DNA of 64,000 bases. Source: Reclinomonas americana ATCC 50394 (lineage: Eukaryota). The notes under the pieces are model-generated. The model ran no database searches. It worked only from the letters and a program-made list of their open reading frames with translations, and had not been told where the DNA came from. The position numbers were made by a program, and so were the translations under genes. The stretch's first letter is position 1, and each line of letters starts with the position of its first letter. The stretch spans positions 112,314 through 176,313 of the forward strand of contig PS015023.1 in NCBI GenBank assembly GCA_048213135.1, read 5' to 3'. Below are positions 4,968-63,826 of this stretch, in pieces.

Positions 4968-7797
4968 TTATCGAATCGTGGCCAGCTGCAGCCACGTGCT
5001 CCAGTCGTCCACTGACAACTCGCCGTCGACCTCTAGTGACTCCGGGGCCTCGGCAACCCACGAGGCAACGGGACGGTACGGCCCATACACGCCGTGCTTC
5101 TTGAACTTGCACGAGCCAGGAAGCAGAATCTGTGCACTCGGAAGAACTCAATCGAAACGCGCGACAAGTCGCCTCGAGTCGAAAGAAACCATACCTCGGC
5201 ATACCGCGCCAGCAAAAACTCCACAGTCTTGCACCAGTAGTCCTCGGAAAGTGCTGGATCGGCGGGAAAGTCGACAAGCAGTGCAGCGAATTCAGCTGTG
5301 CACAAAAGGGTGAGCAAATTTGTGCGACGACCACCAGTATCCCAATCGATCGCGCGTGACGCAACACCACAGCGACGGCCGCGCCTCCACCAACGCCTTC
5401 ATCGTCGCCTGCTGCAACTCCAGTTGCGCACCACCAGGCAACCTCCACTCGGGAAACACCAAATGAAAGCCGTCGCGCACCTGTGCGGACGCGTGTCAGC
5501 CGTCGTGCCACGTCATCATCATCGCACGCCACGTGTTTCGTTGTTTTTGTCGAGCAAAGACGACGACGATGTTGTCTCGTGCGGCTATCCTCGTGTTGAT
5601 CCTCTCAGTGCTCTGCATTGCCTCTGTCTACGCGGCCCGACCGCCGGTGAGCACTCCGCGTGCAATCGCCTCAACGACGAACAACATGTGCGATCCACGC
5701 GTGCCTCACTCATCATTCTCCCGCTTCTCTCTCCTCGCCTCTGTATGCGCGTGTGTCTGTGTGCGTACGTGCTCTCTCAGGACTTCCCACCCGACGATCA
5801 CGTCATCCCACTGACAGGTCAAGACCCCATTCCGGCACCCTCGCGCGAGGACGTTGACCGACGCACACGCGAACGCGAGGAGGCCGTCATTCGCCAGAGT
5901 GGCAAGGTCTGTCCCCGCCCACCTTCTCCCCCTTCCCACCTCCCTCAGACACTGACTCGAGAGAGTTGTCTCGCTCACACAGACGCAGTATCCGTTCGGT
6001 ATGATGACGAAGAGAAAGAGAAGATGCAGATAGGAAGAATCTGCGTGACTGACTTCGTGCTGCAGCGATCGAGGATCCCAACATCCAACACGACGTGCTG
6101 GTGTGGGACGGCGGACCACCGTCCACCATTCCCGATCGTGACATTGAGGTGAGAGAGAGAAGGAGTGGGATCAAACAAGTTCGAATCTCGCTCAAAAGCA
6201 CTCTCTGTCTCTGTGCAGCTGTGGCAGTCATCGGTGTGGTCTGGTGGCCACTTTGGTGTTGGCTTCGGCAACACCACTGTCACGCTCTTCGAGTGTGCCA
6301 TTCCCGTGTGCGATCTGAGCAAGAATCCTGCCTACTCGGTGGTGCAGGTGCGGAAATCTGCGTAGGCGCTCTATCGCTGTCACTGTCTCACTGGTGGTGC
6401 GCGTGCAGAACAAGTGCGAGTTCCCGCTGGTGGATCCCCGCCGCGCCATCACATGGACGGCGACGGCATTTGGTGCCGATGCATGTTGCGTATCCCCATT
6501 TCTCTCCCCTCTTTCTCTCTCTCTTTACACATACTGACGATGTGCACGCAGTGGGACCTGGTGAACCCGCCTCGTTCCCCATGGACTCGCACTGGTTTGT
6601 GTCGCTCTCTCGCGGTGCCATTCACGTGCGTCACGACTACTGCCATCTCCCACGCAAAAAAGTGCCTCACTGCGCCTCCCTCTGCAGACCTATGTGCGCC
6701 ACCCGCCTCCCGACACTGCGTGCCCCACCCATCTGACCACACACATGGTGGCTCGTCTGCTTCTCGTCTCGTACGGTCGGCCATGAAAGAAAAAGGAAAG
6801 AAAGAGACCGACGTCTACCCCGTGCTCTCCTCCCACACCGAGTGCACAGGGACAGTGAAAGCCTCCCACTGTGTGTGTGAAAGAGTGTGTTCTCACCGCA
6901 GTGCCAGTGGGTCGATCGAGAGCGTAGGGAGCCGAGCGCGCCAGCAACAAGACTCGAGTGCGCAAGCCGCGCGGCGCAAGCGACAAGAGCACGCGCGCCA
7001 GCTGCGCTGCCATAGTCACCACGTCGACAGTACGCTCGACCGCACCACTCGCCGGCAGCACGCAGTCCAGATCCACATCCACAAACACGGGCATGTCCAC
7101 GGAGGTGTCGCCGAGGCGCTCCGGAATCTCCATGAGAAAGAGCGAGTTGCCGTGCTCGTACGTGTCACACGGCACATCCAGCAGGTCCTCTCGCGCCAAC
7201 TGCGTCACCGCTACTCCCTCCGTCAGCACCATTCCACCATCTCCAAACACTCGTTCGAGGAGGGCGCGTACCCTCAGCGTACAACTCGAGAAACATGCGA
7301 TGATCGTCGGCAGTCGGCAACAGAAATCTCCGATCGCTGCGCATGCAGTGATGTGTGGCCACCGTGCGCAGCTTGCCCGGCGTGTTCTCCGGCAAGTGCA
7401 CTTGCATTCTCACCCCAGAGCCTGCGCAGAGAAGAACTCAGTCAACATGGAGAGTGTGGGCGAGAGAGAGAGAGGGAGGGGGCGAAAAGTGTGACTGACT
7501 TGCCGCCACCATGGCCGCCGCAGTGACCTCCGAATCCAGTCGCTTTCGCACGCGCTTGGCCGAGCGAGACTCCGACGACACCTCAAACGCACGCATCCAC
7601 TGGTGCAGGCGCAGAACAGCAGGCAGTGGATCACGTGACTGAGAGGCCTCTGTGTGCACACACACACACACACGCACGCATCATGTGTGTGGGTGCTTGT
7701 GTATCAGGCACAGAAGAAGTGTCGACTTACCCGCTGCATAGGCCGGGCGATACGCTGCAAAGCCCTCCGTGTAGGGTCGATAGTTGGGATCGCCCAT
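4968..7797 (-). CDS. Archaeo-eukaryotic primase (AEP) catalytic-domain protein of NCLDV/herpes-primase type, 7 exons, about 350 aa
   Basis: The spliced product reads THHCM..FLLPTADDHRMFLELYAEAV..LFLMEIP..PVFVDVDLD (motif I), then after intron 6896-5481 VRDGFHLVFP (motif II), then WCKTVE..ILLPGSCK..GPYRP..LATIR*. All junctions are GT-AG and phase-compatible. Confidence 0.78.
5569..6786 (+). CDS. Small secreted protein of unknown function, nested antisense in the AEP gene intron
   Basis: Signal peptide MLSRAAILVLILSVLCIASVYA. Seven phase-consistent GT-AG introns with branch-like ctgac/ctcac motifs. Ends ...LLLVSYGRP* at 6784-6786. Confidence 0.72.
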
Positions 7798-7875
7798 TCC
7801 TCAACGCGCGAAAACACACAAGAAATGAAATCCGGCAAAGCGTGACAGGTTTCTCATCTCCAACACTCATACGAG

Positions 7876-8587
7876 ATGACTGTTCCGGAGAAGGTGCCCG
7901 AGTCAGAGGAGGCACCGCTGCCGCCTGACGGACCCACAGTTGCGCGTGACATTCTTCTCTCTCTCTCACTCTCTCTCTCACACACTCTGAGTGCTTGCAG
8001 ATTGGTCGCGCCACCTGGACGTTCCTGCACTCGCTGGCGGCCAACTACCCGCGACGCCCATCGCCAGAGTTGCAACGCACAGCCACTGTCTTTATGGAGG
8101 TGCGACATTGTGTGTGTGATGATGATGCAAGCATGCTCACATACAGAGAGAGCGCAGTCGTTTTCTCGATTGTACCCGTGCTCAACGTGCGCGGAGCATC
8201 TGCGTGAGGTGATGAAGGGAATGCCGCCGGAGACGTCGTCGCGAGAGGCCTTTTCCATGTGGATGTGTCGCGTGCACAATGAGGTCAATGCGGTCACTGG
8301 CAAGCCCGTGTTTGATTGCTCCAAGTGGCGAGAGTACTATGGCGACTATGATGGTGCGCCTTTTGTGTGATTCACAGTCTCGCCAGTGCACTGAGACGCA
8401 TGGTTGTGTGTGCATGTGGGCAGACGATGGTGACGAGGACGCGGAGAAGAAGGAGTGCAAGAAGCCTGCGTGTAACGACGCAGCGAGTTTCCAGTCGATG
8501 TTTGGGATGAACAAGAAGGCCACGCACCTGGTGGCACCGTCGCCGCCCAATGCCGCCATTCGTAAGGAAGTCGTCACTGACTCATGA
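7876..8587 (+). CDS. ERV1: Erv1/ALR FAD-dependent sulfhydryl oxidase
   Basis: PPDGPT|IGRATWTFLHSLAANYP...LYPCSTCAEHL...WMCRVHNEVN..GKPVFDC, with a C-terminal CKKPAC. Confidence 0.93.
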
Positions 8588-57247: not shown

Positions 57248-59955
57248 CTACGCTCCGCTGCCGACCGGCATGGCCTTGTAGAGGTTGGGCTCGGTGGGCA
57301 CGGAGACGGTGGTGTACACGAATCCACCGGCCTGCCACCGTTGCGGCGACTGCAGCATCTCGTACACGAGTGCCTCGTCGCCGAGTCGTTCGTGGCCGGT
57401 AAAGTGGCCGGCGGCGTTGGCCGTCCGTCTGTCGTAGACGCCGTTCGACTTGCGAGAGCCGTGCACGAACTCGGGCGTGTTGATGCGGATCTCCTGGTCG
57501 AGTGACTCGGACCAGAGCGTCATCTGGAAGTGGAACCGCGGCGCGTAGACCAGCTTGCGGGAGTAGCCCTGCGAGGCGGCGCGCTTCTTCGGGCCGTCCT
57601 TCTTGCACTTGAGCTGGTAGTGCATCTCAATGACAACGTAGTCGTCGTAGGGGTCGCTCGGGTTCTGCTGATCGACCGTCGCCGACACGGCCGTCTTGAT
57701 GAACTGCACGTCGGGGTGCACGTACTGGCCGGTGCTCGGTATCAGCTCCAGGAACTCCTGGCCGTTGTGCGAGAACAGATCAAAGTCCGCGTCCCAGTGC
57801 ACGAATCGTGCATTCGGAACGTGGAACACGAAGCGGTAGCGCAGCTTGGCATTGTCTAGAATACGAGAGAGAGGAGTGAGCGATCGATCAAGGGTATGGG
57901 GAAATGTAGACCGTCAGCAACAGAAAACACACTCACCAGGGCCCAGGACGTCGGGGAATCCCGGCAGCCACGCTCCCCTCTGTGTGCTCTCGAGCACGGC
58001 AAAGCGGAGCTTGTGCGGCTGCAGCGACAGGCGCACCTCTTCCACCAGCTGCGGCGACGGCGCGCTGGAATTGCGCGAGCGGAACGAAGGCCGGTAGGGC
58101 GAGCGATGCAGGCGTTCACGGCCGCTAGTCGGGTCCACACGGAAAATCTCCGGCAGATTCCCAGACAAGGGCTCCAGCTTCACACCGCCCGTCGCGGACA
58201 ATGTCGGCAGCGCCGGCAGACAGAGTGCCGGCAACGCCTGGCTGTAGCTGTACGCCAACTCGCGGCGCTTGGGCGGTGTTGGCATGGCGAGCGGCGCCAA
58301 TCGCGGTGACGCGCATGGCGACGGAGAGGCAGAGCGTCGGTCGGCCGCTGTCATCGCAGACATGACGGGCGAGGGCGCCACGGAGCGCGGATCGTAGGTG
58401 CTCGATCCGTAGCTGGAGCTGTGGCCGGACATTTCCGAGTCCACTGGCGACGGTGCCGGCATCCATGACGTCGGCGACGGCGCTCCCATCGGGTCCTGCA
58501 CCGGTGTAGGAGTGGATGGCGGGGGTGCCGGCACAAACATGACCTCCGAGCCGTTACGCGACTGCGTCCAGCCGTACTGCTGTTGTGGAGAAGTGATGGA
58601 GTGAGTGAGTGAGGGAATCTTTTCTTCGTGTCAGCACACACACACTAACCTGCATGCCCGCGCCGGGGACGTCGAGCGGCAGAGTTGAGTTGGAGGCGTA
58701 GGCGGTGGGTGGCGCTGCGCCAAACCCGCGCTGCGCACCACCGTATCCACAGTACGCCGACGAGGCAGAAACTCCGAAACTGAACGGCATCGGCTGCGGC
58801 ATCGCCTGCACCGACATGCCTCCATAGCTCATCTGGTGCACCATCATTGACGGTGGCGGAGGCGGCGGCGGTGGTGTCGCCGGAACGGTCGACTGTCCGT
58901 AGCCGCCAAAGCTTGACGACACAAGTGACGACGATGAACCACCAAACGGGTTGACCAGGCCACATGACGCCGACGGCGACATGAGAATGTCATTGGCCAC
59001 ACCAAACATCTGTGCAAAGACGACAGATCAGCAATGGGAGCGGGGGAAGACAGCAAAGAGGAAAAGCAGTGGAGTGTGTTTTTGATTGGGAGACTGAGGG
59101 AAAGATGGAAAGGAATCAGCGTGTGCGTCACAAAGGGGATCAACACGAAAAAAGCAAACAATCAGTCGCGCGTTACAGTGAGACAGAGAGAGAGAGGCAT
59201 TGTGGCAAGGTGAGAGTGGCCCGAGCTGTCGGAGTCAGGAGGAACCACACTTCCGATACCCGTTACATAAAAAAAGGGCGCGCGCGTAAAGAGGAATCCA
59301 CGACGTACATGATCCCAACGAGAGAGAGAGAGAGAGAGGGAGAGACAGAGGGTGGGTGGGGGAGAGGGAGTGAGTGAGTGAGAGAGAAAGGAGAAGAAGA
59401 CGCGCGCGAAAAATCATTGCCAAAAACACCCGTGTGGCGTGAGAGAGCGAGCGAGTGAGCGAGGTACAAGAGGAGAGCGCACACGAGAGAGATCCACGGA
59501 GAGAGCGCAAAGAGAGCGGGTGAGAGACAAAGAGAGAGAGAGAGAACAAAAAACGGGACACGGGAGAATAAACATAGAACACACACGCGCGCCAAAAAAA
59601 CACGGAACAGCCGAGCCCGAGAGACACACAAACAGACGAGAGAGCGTGTGAGAGACAGAGACAGAGAGCGAGTGGAGAAAACACGGCAAACAATAAATAA
59701 ACACACACGTGTAACACCCACACACAGAGACACACAGAGACACAGTACCTGGAGCGAGTCTGACGAGGCCATTGTCACATGCTGCTGCTGCTGCTGCTGC
59801 GCGCCTGCTCCATTACAAAACGCCGAGGCCGAGAACGGCGGCTGTTGCTGATTGTGTTGTTGCGCAAAGGGATTGTAGTGTGCGGCGGAGGTCGCCGAGG
59901 TCGGAGTGACGCACGAGGGCGACTCCGCCCACAAACTCATCTCTACGTCGTCCAT
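57248..59955 (-). CDS. Putative transcription factor, paralog A (Q/P/S-rich N-terminus plus conserved beta-rich domain)
   Basis: Three introns; low-complexity N-terminus; C-terminal domain closely similar to that of the gene at 62002-63826. Confidence 0.7.
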
Positions 59956-62001
59956 GCTGGCTGAGGCGCAAAAGATCACTGTTGTCGTCGCGCGTGAGGA
60001 GACAAAGAGAAAAAAACACACAAAATGGAAATGCTCAATCAACCTTCGGGTTGGTGGTGTTGTTGTCTTGTTGAGTTGTTGTATGGCGGATAGTTCGCGG
60101 GTGGCATTGCGTGTATGTGTGTGTCTGTGCGTTCGTGTCAGCGTGAGAAGGAGGTGATGAAGAGGAACTGCGGTTGAGGTTGAGCTGATTGAGTGGAGAG
60201 TTGAGGTGTGACAGGCTTTTTGCCCGATTTCCAATCGAACAGCATTGCCGAATCCGTACACCATTTTGAAGTTCTTATTCTGGCCCTCGTCAGCGGTGCC
60301 TGCAGCAGTGGGATGGAGGTGCGCGTGCATCAGTGTGTGCTGCATGTGGAGGCGTGTCTCTTATTGTGTGTGTATGCGCGCGTGTCATGATGTTGTCGTG
60401 TCGGTGCATGCATGCATATGTCGTGCGCATTTGCCGGATTCGGTGACTGCACGGAAAAAAGCTCATGCAGTCTGGCCACGCAGCGCCTGTTGCTTCTCTC
60501 TCACACACTGCCTCGTTGGCAGCTGCTACTACTCCTCTCACATTCCTCGCCATCGGAGCGTGCATGTGCGCTCTTGTGCGAGTGGCTGGCTTTCTTTTTG
60601 AGCACTGCATCAGTTTCGAAATCGGACACTGAAAATCGAACGCGGTACCGCACAGCGGTGTGGGAGGTGTGGGGGCGACTCGTCACTCGCTTTTCTCTGC
60701 TTCACTGATGCAGCAGTACCCAGTGTCTTTCTTCTGCTTCTTCGCCGTCGTTCCCGTTGAGCTGATTGATTTGCACGAGCACGGTTCCACGAATTGAGGC
60801 AAACGATCGCCATTTGCTTTGATTTTGATTTCCTTCTCCCTCTGCCCCTCCCTCATCGCCCCCACTCAAATGCAACACAGCAGTCAACTTTTGTACATTA
60901 CGATGCATGGACATGTCATCTACAAATACGCAATGATTACGCCTTCAAGGAGACGGTATAAAAAAGGGGGGGTACGCCACATCAACGAGAGAGAGCGGCT
61001 GGCGAGGCGCGCTCTTGCAGTCTGCCACGATAGATTGCCCGGTGGGGGAAAGGAGATTAAAAGAGAATGTAACGCGTCAAGGACACGCGAGGATAGCGCA
61101 CGGGTAAAGGAGAGCAGGAGTGAGGAGGAGGAGAGAGGTGGGCAGGCAGACACGAATTATCGATAGTATCGATTACGAGCCAAAAATGCATCAGCGGGGG
61201 GTGTGAGCAGTGGGGAGGCACGGAGCGTGTGGCCAGTGACGCGAGGAGGAGGGTGGATTGGGGTCGGGGTTAATGAGCCGACGGCAACAGCAGGGGACGG
61301 GCAAGATGGGGAGACAGCGGCAGCAGTGACAAGCACAAGGCAGCGAGGAACGAGACCAATAAGTGTGCCATGGTGGCCGTGCGTGCATGCCCAGTGTGTG
61401 GCGACGAGAGAGTGTGTTGTGTGGCTCAGCTGTTACACCATCGAAAATGCCGACACACACAACACAAAGAGAGCGAGAGGAGAATTGGCAGAGACGACGA
61501 CGGGTGAAGCGTGCATGTGCGTGTGCGCGACGCGTGAAACTAGGCGTACCAAAATAACGCGCGCGCGCACAACACACACCACACCTCGTGCCCGCGTCCC
61601 ACACCTTCCCATTCTCTCACTCTCAATGTGCCATGTGTGCAACACTCGATAATCTGCTCCTCAATAGGAGGGAGGAGCAGTGGTGCGATTACAGTGATAT
61701 CGGCCTGCCACACAAGCACACAAACGCGCACGCACACACACAAGAGACAGTACAACGCGACGACCACCCACAATGACGCACACACAATAGGGCTGATCTC
61801 GCCTCACCACCTCGCCTCGAGTGTGTCACCACCACCGCAGCCACCACCACCAACTGCCCGCCGTTCGTCCCTGCCGGCCTCGATAGCCCGCCAATATCAC
61901 ACCGCTCGTGCTCGTCGTCACGTGGTCCACACGCCGTGCAGTCCCAGACTGTCACCTAGGTTAAAAAAAGGGGGTCGGGGTGGGGGTGGTGGAAGGACTC
62001 C

Positions 62002-63826
62002 TCAAGCCGCGCCAACTTGAATGGCGAAGAAGAGGTTGGAGTCGGGCTGCGCCTGCACCGTCGTGTACACGCAGCCGGAGCCGCAGCGACCCGGCGCCTG
62101 CAGCATCTGAAACACCTCGGTCTCGTCGCCAAGGCGCTCGGCCAGCGATTCCGGACGCGGCGCGTGAGCCGGGCGGCGATCGTAGACGCCATTCGACTTG
62201 CGCGAGCCGTGCACGAATTGCGGCGTGTTGAGGTGGATCGAGTGGGTGAGCATCTCCGACCACAGGCTCAGCTTGAAGTGGAACTTGGGCGCGTACACCA
62301 GCTTGCGGCTCTGGCCATTGGCCGAGGCGCGCTTCTTCGGTCCGTCCTTCTTGCACTTGAGTTGGTAGTGCATCTCCACAATGACAAAGTCGTCCTTGGA
62401 GTCGGCCGGGTTGAGCGTGTCGACCGTGATCGACATGGCGGTCTTGATGAACTGGATGTCGGGGTACACCAGCTCGCCCGACGGCGACATCTCCAGGAAG
62501 TCGTGACCATTGTGCGAGAACAGCTCCAGGTCGGCGTTCCAATCGACGTAGCGCGCGTGCGGCACGCGGAACACGAATTTGTAGCGGAGCTTGGCATTGT
62601 CTGTGTGGGAGGGAGAGAAAGAGTGAGATCAAGGGGAAGGGGAGAACAATAAGGAACAAGTGAGAGGAAAACTCACCAGGACCGAGGACCTCGGGGAAAC
62701 CAGGCAACCAGGCGCCGCGCTGTGTGCTCTCGAGCACCACAAACGTCAGCGCATGCGGCTGCAGCGACTGGCGAATGGCGTGGCACAAGTCGGCCGGTGG
62801 CGTGCCAGCGTCTTGCGGCGCATACGGCATCTGCTCCAGCTCATCCTCCGTCGGCGCCACACGGAAAGTCTCCGGCAGACGCGACGACAGGCCACTGGCG
62901 CCCACCATCGACGGCGTCATGTCGGCCGAAGCCGAGTAGTTGTACGACAACTCGCGCTTGATCTGTTGCTGCTGCTGCGGCACGGCGGCAGTCTCCTGCA
63001 GCTGCTGCATTTGCTGCAAGTGACGCGCCTGTTGCAAGTAGAACACCGCGGCCTTGAGCACCTCGGGCGTGAGTCCGGCCACACCAGCCGCCGCGGCAGC
63101 AGCGGACGGCGACATGGGCGAGCCAGCAGCCGACGACGGCAAGTAGGCGGACACTGGAGCCGGCTGCGGCACCGGCGGCATCGCGTACTGCATGGCGTAC
63201 TGCGGCGGCGCCATAAACACCGACGGCTGCGCGTAGTACGGCGACGGTTCCGGTTCGAAAGCGGGCGCCGGCATCGCGGAGCACGCCATAAACTGCGGGA
63301 ACGGGAGAATTTGAGCATTCGGAGTTGCTCGCTCGCGACGCCGCGGCGCGGGAATTTCTTACTGCAACGCAACTGCTTGCTCCTCTTCGGCCTCGTCAAA
63401 CGCCACTCCATCAAGATGACCGCCGGTCTCCGAGTCGGCCGCACCCGGCTGCCCGCTCATGTACGACAAGGGCATCATGAACGACGGGGCAGAGGCAGTG
63501 GCGGCTGCGGAGGCGTCGTCCCAAGCCGATTCATCACCGCCATCCCACATGTCCACGTCGCCGTCGCCCATCTCCACGAGAGCAGACGACTCGGCGAATG
63601 ATGCCACGTGGCTGGTGGGCATGGAGGGGCCGCCGTGCGCGCCACCACCAAAGGAATCGTCGTGGTGACCGTTGAACGGTTCGAGGTATTCGCCGGCGAC
63701 AGGCGCTGTGTGTGCACAAATAGATGAGAAGGCGATGCACACAGCGCCGGTGACGCGTTACACAAAGGAGGCGCAACTGATGGGTGGCTCCCACTGGAAG
63801 CGATCAGAGGTGAAGCGGTGGAACAT
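62002..63826 (-). CDS. Putative transcription factor, paralog B
   Basis: Three introns, including one at the same position as in paralog A (VLGP|DNAKLRY). Shared IVEMHYQLKCKKDGPKKRA..RKLVYAP.FHF..NTP.FVHGSRKSNGVYDRR. Confidence 0.7.

Follow-up and report, generated by a model that had tools for sequence, protein, structure and literature searches.

A probable nuclear gene in Reclinomonas americana encoding only the primase domain of a giant-virus D5-type primase-helicase

We analyzed a 64,000-nucleotide (nt) stretch of Reclinomonas americana ATCC 50394 DNA (contig PS015023.1, positions 112,314 to 176,313; hereafter the window, whose own numbering is used throughout), which carries on its minus strand, at 4968-7797, an intron-bearing gene with the motifs of an archaeo-eukaryotic primase (AEP). 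The reading that we favor, at a probability of about 0.6, is that this is a eukaryotic nuclear gene encoding only the catalytic AEP domain of the D5/C962R type of primase-helicase found in nucleocytoplasmic large DNA viruses (NCLDV). As judged from profile comparison with shuffle controls, the N-terminal two thirds of the predicted protein, from a TH motif through a DxD to a G-x-H, is homologous to the NCLDV D5/C962R AEP family. The accessory domains of that family are all absent, and the composition, introns and neighbors of the gene are host-like.

Results

A viral reference family defined by motif II

The reference family was collected by scanning IMG/VR viral contigs with a back-translated form of the pattern DGFH-x-x-FP, in which the second codon position of each x was set to T (F/L/I/M/V). 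This pattern matched 62 stretches, 42 of which lie in open reading frames (ORFs) of D5-type primases that share a common N-terminal profile match; 30 of the 42 were used to build the profile behind this count, and the other 12 are fragments outside it. The remaining 20 are short frames without a match to the primase profile, most of them under 130 amino acids (aa) and a few longer, up to 471 aa. These 20 include some phage-sized contigs and look like chance matches.

In viral ORFs whose start is present, motif II lies about 130-225 residues from that start, within [K/R]DGFHxxFP...RHLIR. All five long viral ORFs tested against Pfam matched AEP_C962R (PF23162; E 3.5e-23 to 9.9e-56), PriCT_2 and D5_N; four of them also matched DUF5906, and one of these four Pox_D5 as well. 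On this domain content, the pattern-matched primase ORFs are NCLDV D5-type primase-helicases. The viral form of motif II, which an earlier note on this DNA had given, is thus a real feature of these enzymes.

An alignment of 24 AEP domains from the viral ORFs, when compared with the PDB, matched the solved structure of C962R from African swine fever virus (ASFV) at E 1.5e-13 (8iqc/8iqb), and the same profile reached no PrimPol chain in the PDB at E<=1. A search with this alignment for stand-alone forms, among proteins of similar length, returned 15 matches, all of them metagenome fragments and uninformative.

Homology of the spliced protein to the viral AEP domain

The gene was read as seven exons, spliced under four models of intron 3 (the third of six candidate introns), and each product was compared with a 28-sequence viral profile by hhalign. 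All four models gave a match, with a probability of 93.7-94.9% and E 4.1e-8 to 2e-7 over 136-137 columns, although these headline E-values are inflated because the viral profile was collected through a motif that the protein itself contains. The aligned stretch begins at the TH motif and extends past motif II, and within it the identity to the viral family is about 24%. Similarly, the HMMER local score of the spliced protein, about 15 bits, comes almost wholly from the selecting motif, and we did not count it as independent evidence.

Comparisons in which the motif was masked, or in which shuffled sequences kept it, provide the fair numbers for homology. The real score was 61.5, compared with 39.2 +/- 1.8 (maximum 46.7) in 200 motif-keeping shuffles. 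With the motif masked, the part from TH to DxD still matched at E 3.7e-4 over 58 columns under the model with an 82-nt intron 3, and more weakly under the other intron 3 models (E 5.8e-4 to 8.5e-3). Single exons also matched the 24-domain alignment: exon 3 at columns 31-60 (P 0.0025) and exon 4 at columns 59-90 (P 0.0074), and the two matches are collinear. Scanned against Pfam, exon 4 met AEP_C962R (PF23162) at E 0.19 and 0.18, over profile positions 22-66, and each time this was one of only two families listed.

Conserved positions outside the selecting motif behaved consistently with these scores. Twelve viral columns outside it reach a conservation of at least 90%; aligned by MAFFT, the protein retains nine of them: Y60, E75, D86, D88, D194, W203, G207, K210 and Y216. 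None of 107 motif-keeping shuffles reached nine, and two reached eight. In the region of motif I, LFLME and PVFVDVDLD fall on the invariant viral residues E75, D86 and D88. That catalytic and invariant residues have survived at about 24% identity argues for past selection. These results bear out the suggestion of the earlier note that the protein is of AEP type and resembles NCLDV primases. The viral family has a member of solved structure, and on that homology we infer that the protein would adopt the AEP fold, with a ModN part and an RRM-like (RNA recognition motif-like) ModC part.

Structure of the gene

A scan of the window for open frames places the minus-strand ATG that opens the seven-exon series at 7797-7795 and its closing TAA at 4970-4968, so that the limits proposed in the earlier note, 4968-7797, are exact. 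The nine motifs listed there are likewise all present, on the minus strand, in the same order and in open exon frames. The exons, motifs and main introns are as follows.

7731-7797, minus strand: exon 1; ATG at 7797-7795, donor G/GTAAGT
7500-7649, minus strand: exon 2; basic patch KRVRKR at 7540-7557
7272-7421, minus strand: exon 3; TH and F..LY motifs, matching viral AEP profile columns 31-60
7342-7359, minus strand: motif THHCM
7279-7293, minus strand: motif FLELY
7200-7271, minus strand: candidate intron 3, GTACGC...GACGCAG, 72 nt; best-fitting splice sites, one base out of frame
6897-7199, minus strand: exon 4; LFLME strand, motif I PVFVDVDLD (DxD), RVLLLAR strand; 5' limit uncertain
7128-7142, minus strand: motif LFLME
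7065-7091, minus strand: motif PVFVDVDLD
5481-6896, minus strand: intron 4, GTGAGA...GCACAG, 1416 nt
5570-6790, plus strand: nested multi-exon gene in intron 4; signal-peptide-like N-terminus, 3' limit approximate
5366-5480, minus strand: exon 5; motif II RDGFHLVFP at 5451-5477
5451-5474, minus strand: motif DGFHLVFP
5195-5295, minus strand: exon 6; LLVDFPAD (candidate motif III Asp), EDYW, KTVE
about 5219-5236, minus strand: motif WCKTVE (KTVE at 5219-5230)
4968-5129, minus strand: exon 7; LLPGSCK (Gly and Lys kept), GPYRP, ending in ATIR and TAA
5106-5126, minus strand: motif LLPGSCK
5070-5084, minus strand: motif GPYRP
4971-4982, minus strand: motif ATIR (4968-4982 with the TAA)

A single pattern, GT...GC[A/G]CAG, fits all six candidate introns, which measure 81, 78, 72, 1416, 70 and 65 nt. 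Five of the six preserve the reading frame, the exception being intron 3. The earlier count of six host-style introns therefore stands as far as the shared splice pattern goes, while one of the six breaks the frame. The long intron 4 gains support from its splice, which restores the spacing of the viral proteins: 14 residues from the preceding beta strand to motif II in both. The gene nested wholly within this intron on the plus strand starts with an ATG at 5570, has a hydrophobic, signal-peptide-like beginning and Cys-rich exons, and one of its exons, of 43 aa, had no Pfam match. The basic patch KRVRKR in exon 2 is a possible nuclear localization signal and hints at a nuclear location of the protein.

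A stop-free plus-strand frame of 386 aa (6366-7526) runs antisense to exons 3 and 4. Long chance ORFs are common in the GC-rich DNA here, so an open frame says little by itself about coding.

The position of motif III

The earlier note held that the motif III Asp appears here as Glu, which is doubtful and depends on the alignment. MAFFT places the Asp of LLVDFPAD (5258-5281), the Trp of EDYW, and the Gly and Lys of PGSCK on D194, W203, G207 and K210, so that an Asp candidate and a Trp fall on invariant viral columns. This placement implies a 14-residue insertion (CKTVEFLLARYAEI) ahead of LLPGSCK. Taking the Glu of KTVE as motif III instead keeps the viral spacing to GS.K, but the Trp is lost. 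Both assignments are tentative, the region after motif II lacking significance on its own.

A host-like genomic context

The composition of the gene is that of its surroundings: the window has a GC content of 58.6% (range 55-62%) and the coding sequence of the gene 62%, compared with a median of 28% in 31 viral D5-type ORFs. Introns in the window are short, of GT-AG type and rich in CA/CT repeats, and nearby host genes carry comparable ones, with an in-frame intron of about 66 nt in the NFS1 gene and two of about 60 nt in the gene for an Erv1/ALR sulfhydryl oxidase.

The gene is closely flanked on both sides. Its end at 4968 and the stop of a convergent subtilase gene (Peptidase_S8) are 90 nt apart, so no further domain or exon can follow. 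On the other side, the ATG of the divergent Erv1/ALR gene lies 78 nt from that of the AEP gene (7797-7876), which makes a shared bidirectional promoter probable. When compared with the PDB, an Erv1/ALR exon matched cellular ALR/Erv1 at E 2e-18 and chain 3gwl, which we take to be a viral entry, at E 4.8e-4. Other genes of the window are ordinary cellular ones (NFS1, an OTU protease and a superfamily 1 (SF1) helicase), several of them with visible introns.

Remnants of PriCT, D5_N or helicase domains were sought in the window by tblastn with full-length viral ORFs of at least 800 aa, and none was found. Only the motif II exon was hit, at a best E of 0.013, and the other, scattered matches had E>=0.03 and corresponded to no D5 domain. 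Together with the reading frames up to the end of the gene, this agrees with the earlier description of a stand-alone primase lacking PriCT, helicase and Zn finger. The neighbors are cellular and intron-bearing, with no giant-virus gene cluster in a search aimed at D5 pieces only and not at other NCLDV core genes; with the same limit to D5 pieces, the earlier remark that there are no viral neighbors holds, both Erv1/ALR and the subtilase being cellular. Composition, introns and neighbors together point to a gene that is old, isolated and fully ameliorated, and away from a recent insertion or a giant-virus island.

Elsewhere in the window, two minus-strand ORFs, at 57251-58630 and 61964-63358, share a segment ...SLQPH.L.F.VLESTQRGAWLPGFP.VLGPGE..., which suggests that they are paralogues. 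The piece at 57251-57913 gave no Pfam match.

Evidence against this reading and alternative explanations

Besides the inflation of the headline E-values, several results weigh against a D5/C962R-type nuclear gene. Three near-invariant viral residues, G44, Y103 and E136, are lost. Scored at 12.4 bits, exon 4 falls below the PF23162 gathering cut-off of 23 bits (exons were scanned singly), and exons 3, 5, 6 and 7, scanned in the same way, gave no Pfam match. The part of the protein after motif II scored 13.0, against 12.4 +/- 2.4 in 100 shuffles; exon 6 alone did not match the viral AEP alignment, and in exon 7 alone only LPGSCK was aligned, to mYGSkK, with a non-significant P of 0.22. Database searches with exon 4 (103 aa) were empty as well. 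Nothing was found in a collection of 5.8 billion proteins searched for longer proteins, among 1.84 billion representatives searched by phmmer, in PHROGs, or in the PDB, where PrimPol was not among the matches listed; the ESM Atlas gave nothing useful (best value 0.85, bacterial clusters). Close relatives were also sought in IMG/VR viral contigs with exons 4 and 7 and in JGI metagenomes with exon 4, and there were none. The best identity found in the protein collection for the NFS1 exon of this window was 75%, indicating that the proteome of the source organism is absent there, and for this reason the empty exon searches are weak evidence.

The remaining difficulty is intron 3. Spliced at its consensus sites (7271-7200), the gene has a total exon length of 1048 nt, which exceeds the reading frame by one base. 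The frame can be kept by weak acceptors that make the intron 22, 31, 58 or 82 nt long, with the exon restarting at 7249, 7240, 7213 or 7189, by a GC donor, or by a 1-nt insertion or deletion, for which the GGG and CCC runs near 7260-7275 are a candidate site. The frame break is possibly an assembly error, an unusual splice, or a true frameshift in a pseudogene. A run of N (an assembly gap) at about 2180-2400 breaks an upstream subtilase-like gene. In a draft assembly with such runs, a one-base error at 7200-7280 is plausible.

The frame break is also a ground for regarding the locus as a relic in decay: what is left of an old giant-virus insertion would be a pseudogene or an unexpressed sequence, in which the motifs persist and no working protein is made. 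Such a relic would also suit the extreme divergence without a relative in protein, viral or metagenome searches, the three lost residues, the insertion before GS.K, and the presence of long chance frames such as the antisense one. Nevertheless, seven exons remain open, and nine of the twelve invariant positions, including the DxD, together with the His, are kept at about 24% identity, as selection on catalysis would give, while the draft state of the assembly offers a plausible source for the extra base. On this balance we regard decay as the less likely reading, but as a serious possibility. Chance resemblance, in which open frames of GC-rich DNA happen to carry AEP-like motifs and there is no real gene, would also explain why exon-wise searches came back empty. 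The shuffle controls speak against it, as do the collinear matches of independent exons, the six consistent pairs of splice sites and the viral spacing reproduced by the long-intron splice, which together make it very improbable.

A further alternative accepts the gene and its AEP domain and changes its origin: the protein could be a highly diverged orthologue of cellular PrimPol that has lost the UL52-like zinc finger, in place of a separate viral capture. Placed in the same NCLDV-herpesvirus primase clade, PrimPol is described as widespread in protists (PMC5295015), and an orthologue would likewise be an intron-bearing nuclear gene among host genes. In contrast, motif I here is DxD and motif II has G-x-H within kDGFHxxFP, where PrimPol is described with DxE and SxH (PMC5295015), a difference that favors the D5-type assignment of the earlier note over PrimPol. 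The TH, F..Y, P.xVDxD and W...GS.K signatures belong to the D5-type profile, the same profile that reached no PrimPol chain, and only about 45 residues follow GS.K, with no Cys/His-rich C-terminal region. We consider a PrimPol orthologue improbable, and it keeps some weight because the protein is set apart from PrimPol by published motif descriptions.

Discussion

The evidence that carries a D5/C962R-type nuclear gene comes from the N-terminal two thirds of the protein, in a gene with host-like introns, composition and neighbors. Such a gene probably arose by an old transfer of a giant-virus primase-helicase gene into a eukaryote, after which the transferred gene would have been cut down to its AEP domain and invaded by introns. 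The resulting protein would carry a metal-binding DxD, a nucleotide-binding His, a candidate motif III Asp and the lysine of GS.K. Its most likely activity, if it is expressed, would be template-dependent nucleotidyl transfer, in primer extension or gap filling; lacking the help of a PriCT or zinc finger, it would probably prime de novo weakly or not at all. This expectation rests on analogy with two described cases: C962R's AEP domain on its own, which is reported to be stable and to extend primers, more weakly than the full protein (PMC10516667), and PrimPol without its zinc finger, which is described as keeping polymerase activity and not primase activity (PMC5295015).

A bolder proposal, which we hold only tentatively and consider doubtful, is that eukaryotes domesticated a giant-virus AEP a second time, independently of PrimPol, for which a viral origin has been proposed. 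Selection would then have kept the bare D5/C962R-type catalytic domain for long enough to acquire six introns and a nested gene, and the protein might now work alone in the nucleus as a primase-polymerase that fills gaps or helps to tolerate damage, unaided by a PriCT, zinc finger or helicase.

Large DNA viruses and eukaryotes are believed to have exchanged AEP primase-polymerases, and the one outcome studied well is PrimPol. If the D5/C962R-type reading is correct, this gene would add a further viral AEP capture with an architecture different from that of PrimPol, and its cell would be a natural setting in which to learn what a bare viral AEP core is capable of. Its divergence beyond the reach of BLAST and Pfam also implies that such captures may be missed in part when eukaryotic genomes are surveyed for viral genes. 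If the locus is instead a decaying relic, it would be an ordinary trace of a past giant-virus infection.

Compared with the NCLDV D5-type AEP domain (PF23162; ASFV C962R), the protein shares the order and spacing of TH, F..Y, the hhhhE strand, P.xVDxD, the strand before motif II and kDGFHxxFP, and, on the MAFFT placement, also of Asp...Trp, GS.K and Tyr. It departs from that domain in having about 24% identity to it in the aligned part, in its insertions after F..LY and before GS.K, in the missing G44, Y103 and E136, and in a Pfam score below cut-off. Unlike an NCLDV D5 primase-helicase, it has no PriCT-2, D5_N, superfamily 3 (SF3) helicase or tail domain, and unlike the viral D5-type genes, its gene has spliceosomal introns and 62% GC.

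D5 primase-helicase homologues have been described in the genomes of protists, algae and fungi, where most of them sit in islands together with further genes of viral origin and can be recognized by BLAST (Gallot-Lavallee & Blanc 2017, PMC5294986). A non-exhaustive search of the literature, in the portions of text available, turned up no earlier account of a D5-type gene that stands isolated, bears introns and is reduced to the AEP domain. Unlike endogenous giant-virus elements, the gene described here is isolated, single-domain, intronized, compositionally ameliorated and beyond the reach of BLAST. Like the gene of eukaryotic PrimPol (CCDC111), it would be a nuclear, intron-bearing gene with an AEP domain of the NCLDV-herpesvirus clade; PrimPol is thought to be of viral origin (PMC5295015). 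The two are set apart by motif descriptions: PrimPol has DxE, SxH, a UL52-like zinc finger and RPA-binding motifs, whereas the protein here has DxD, G-x-H and nothing after the AEP domain.

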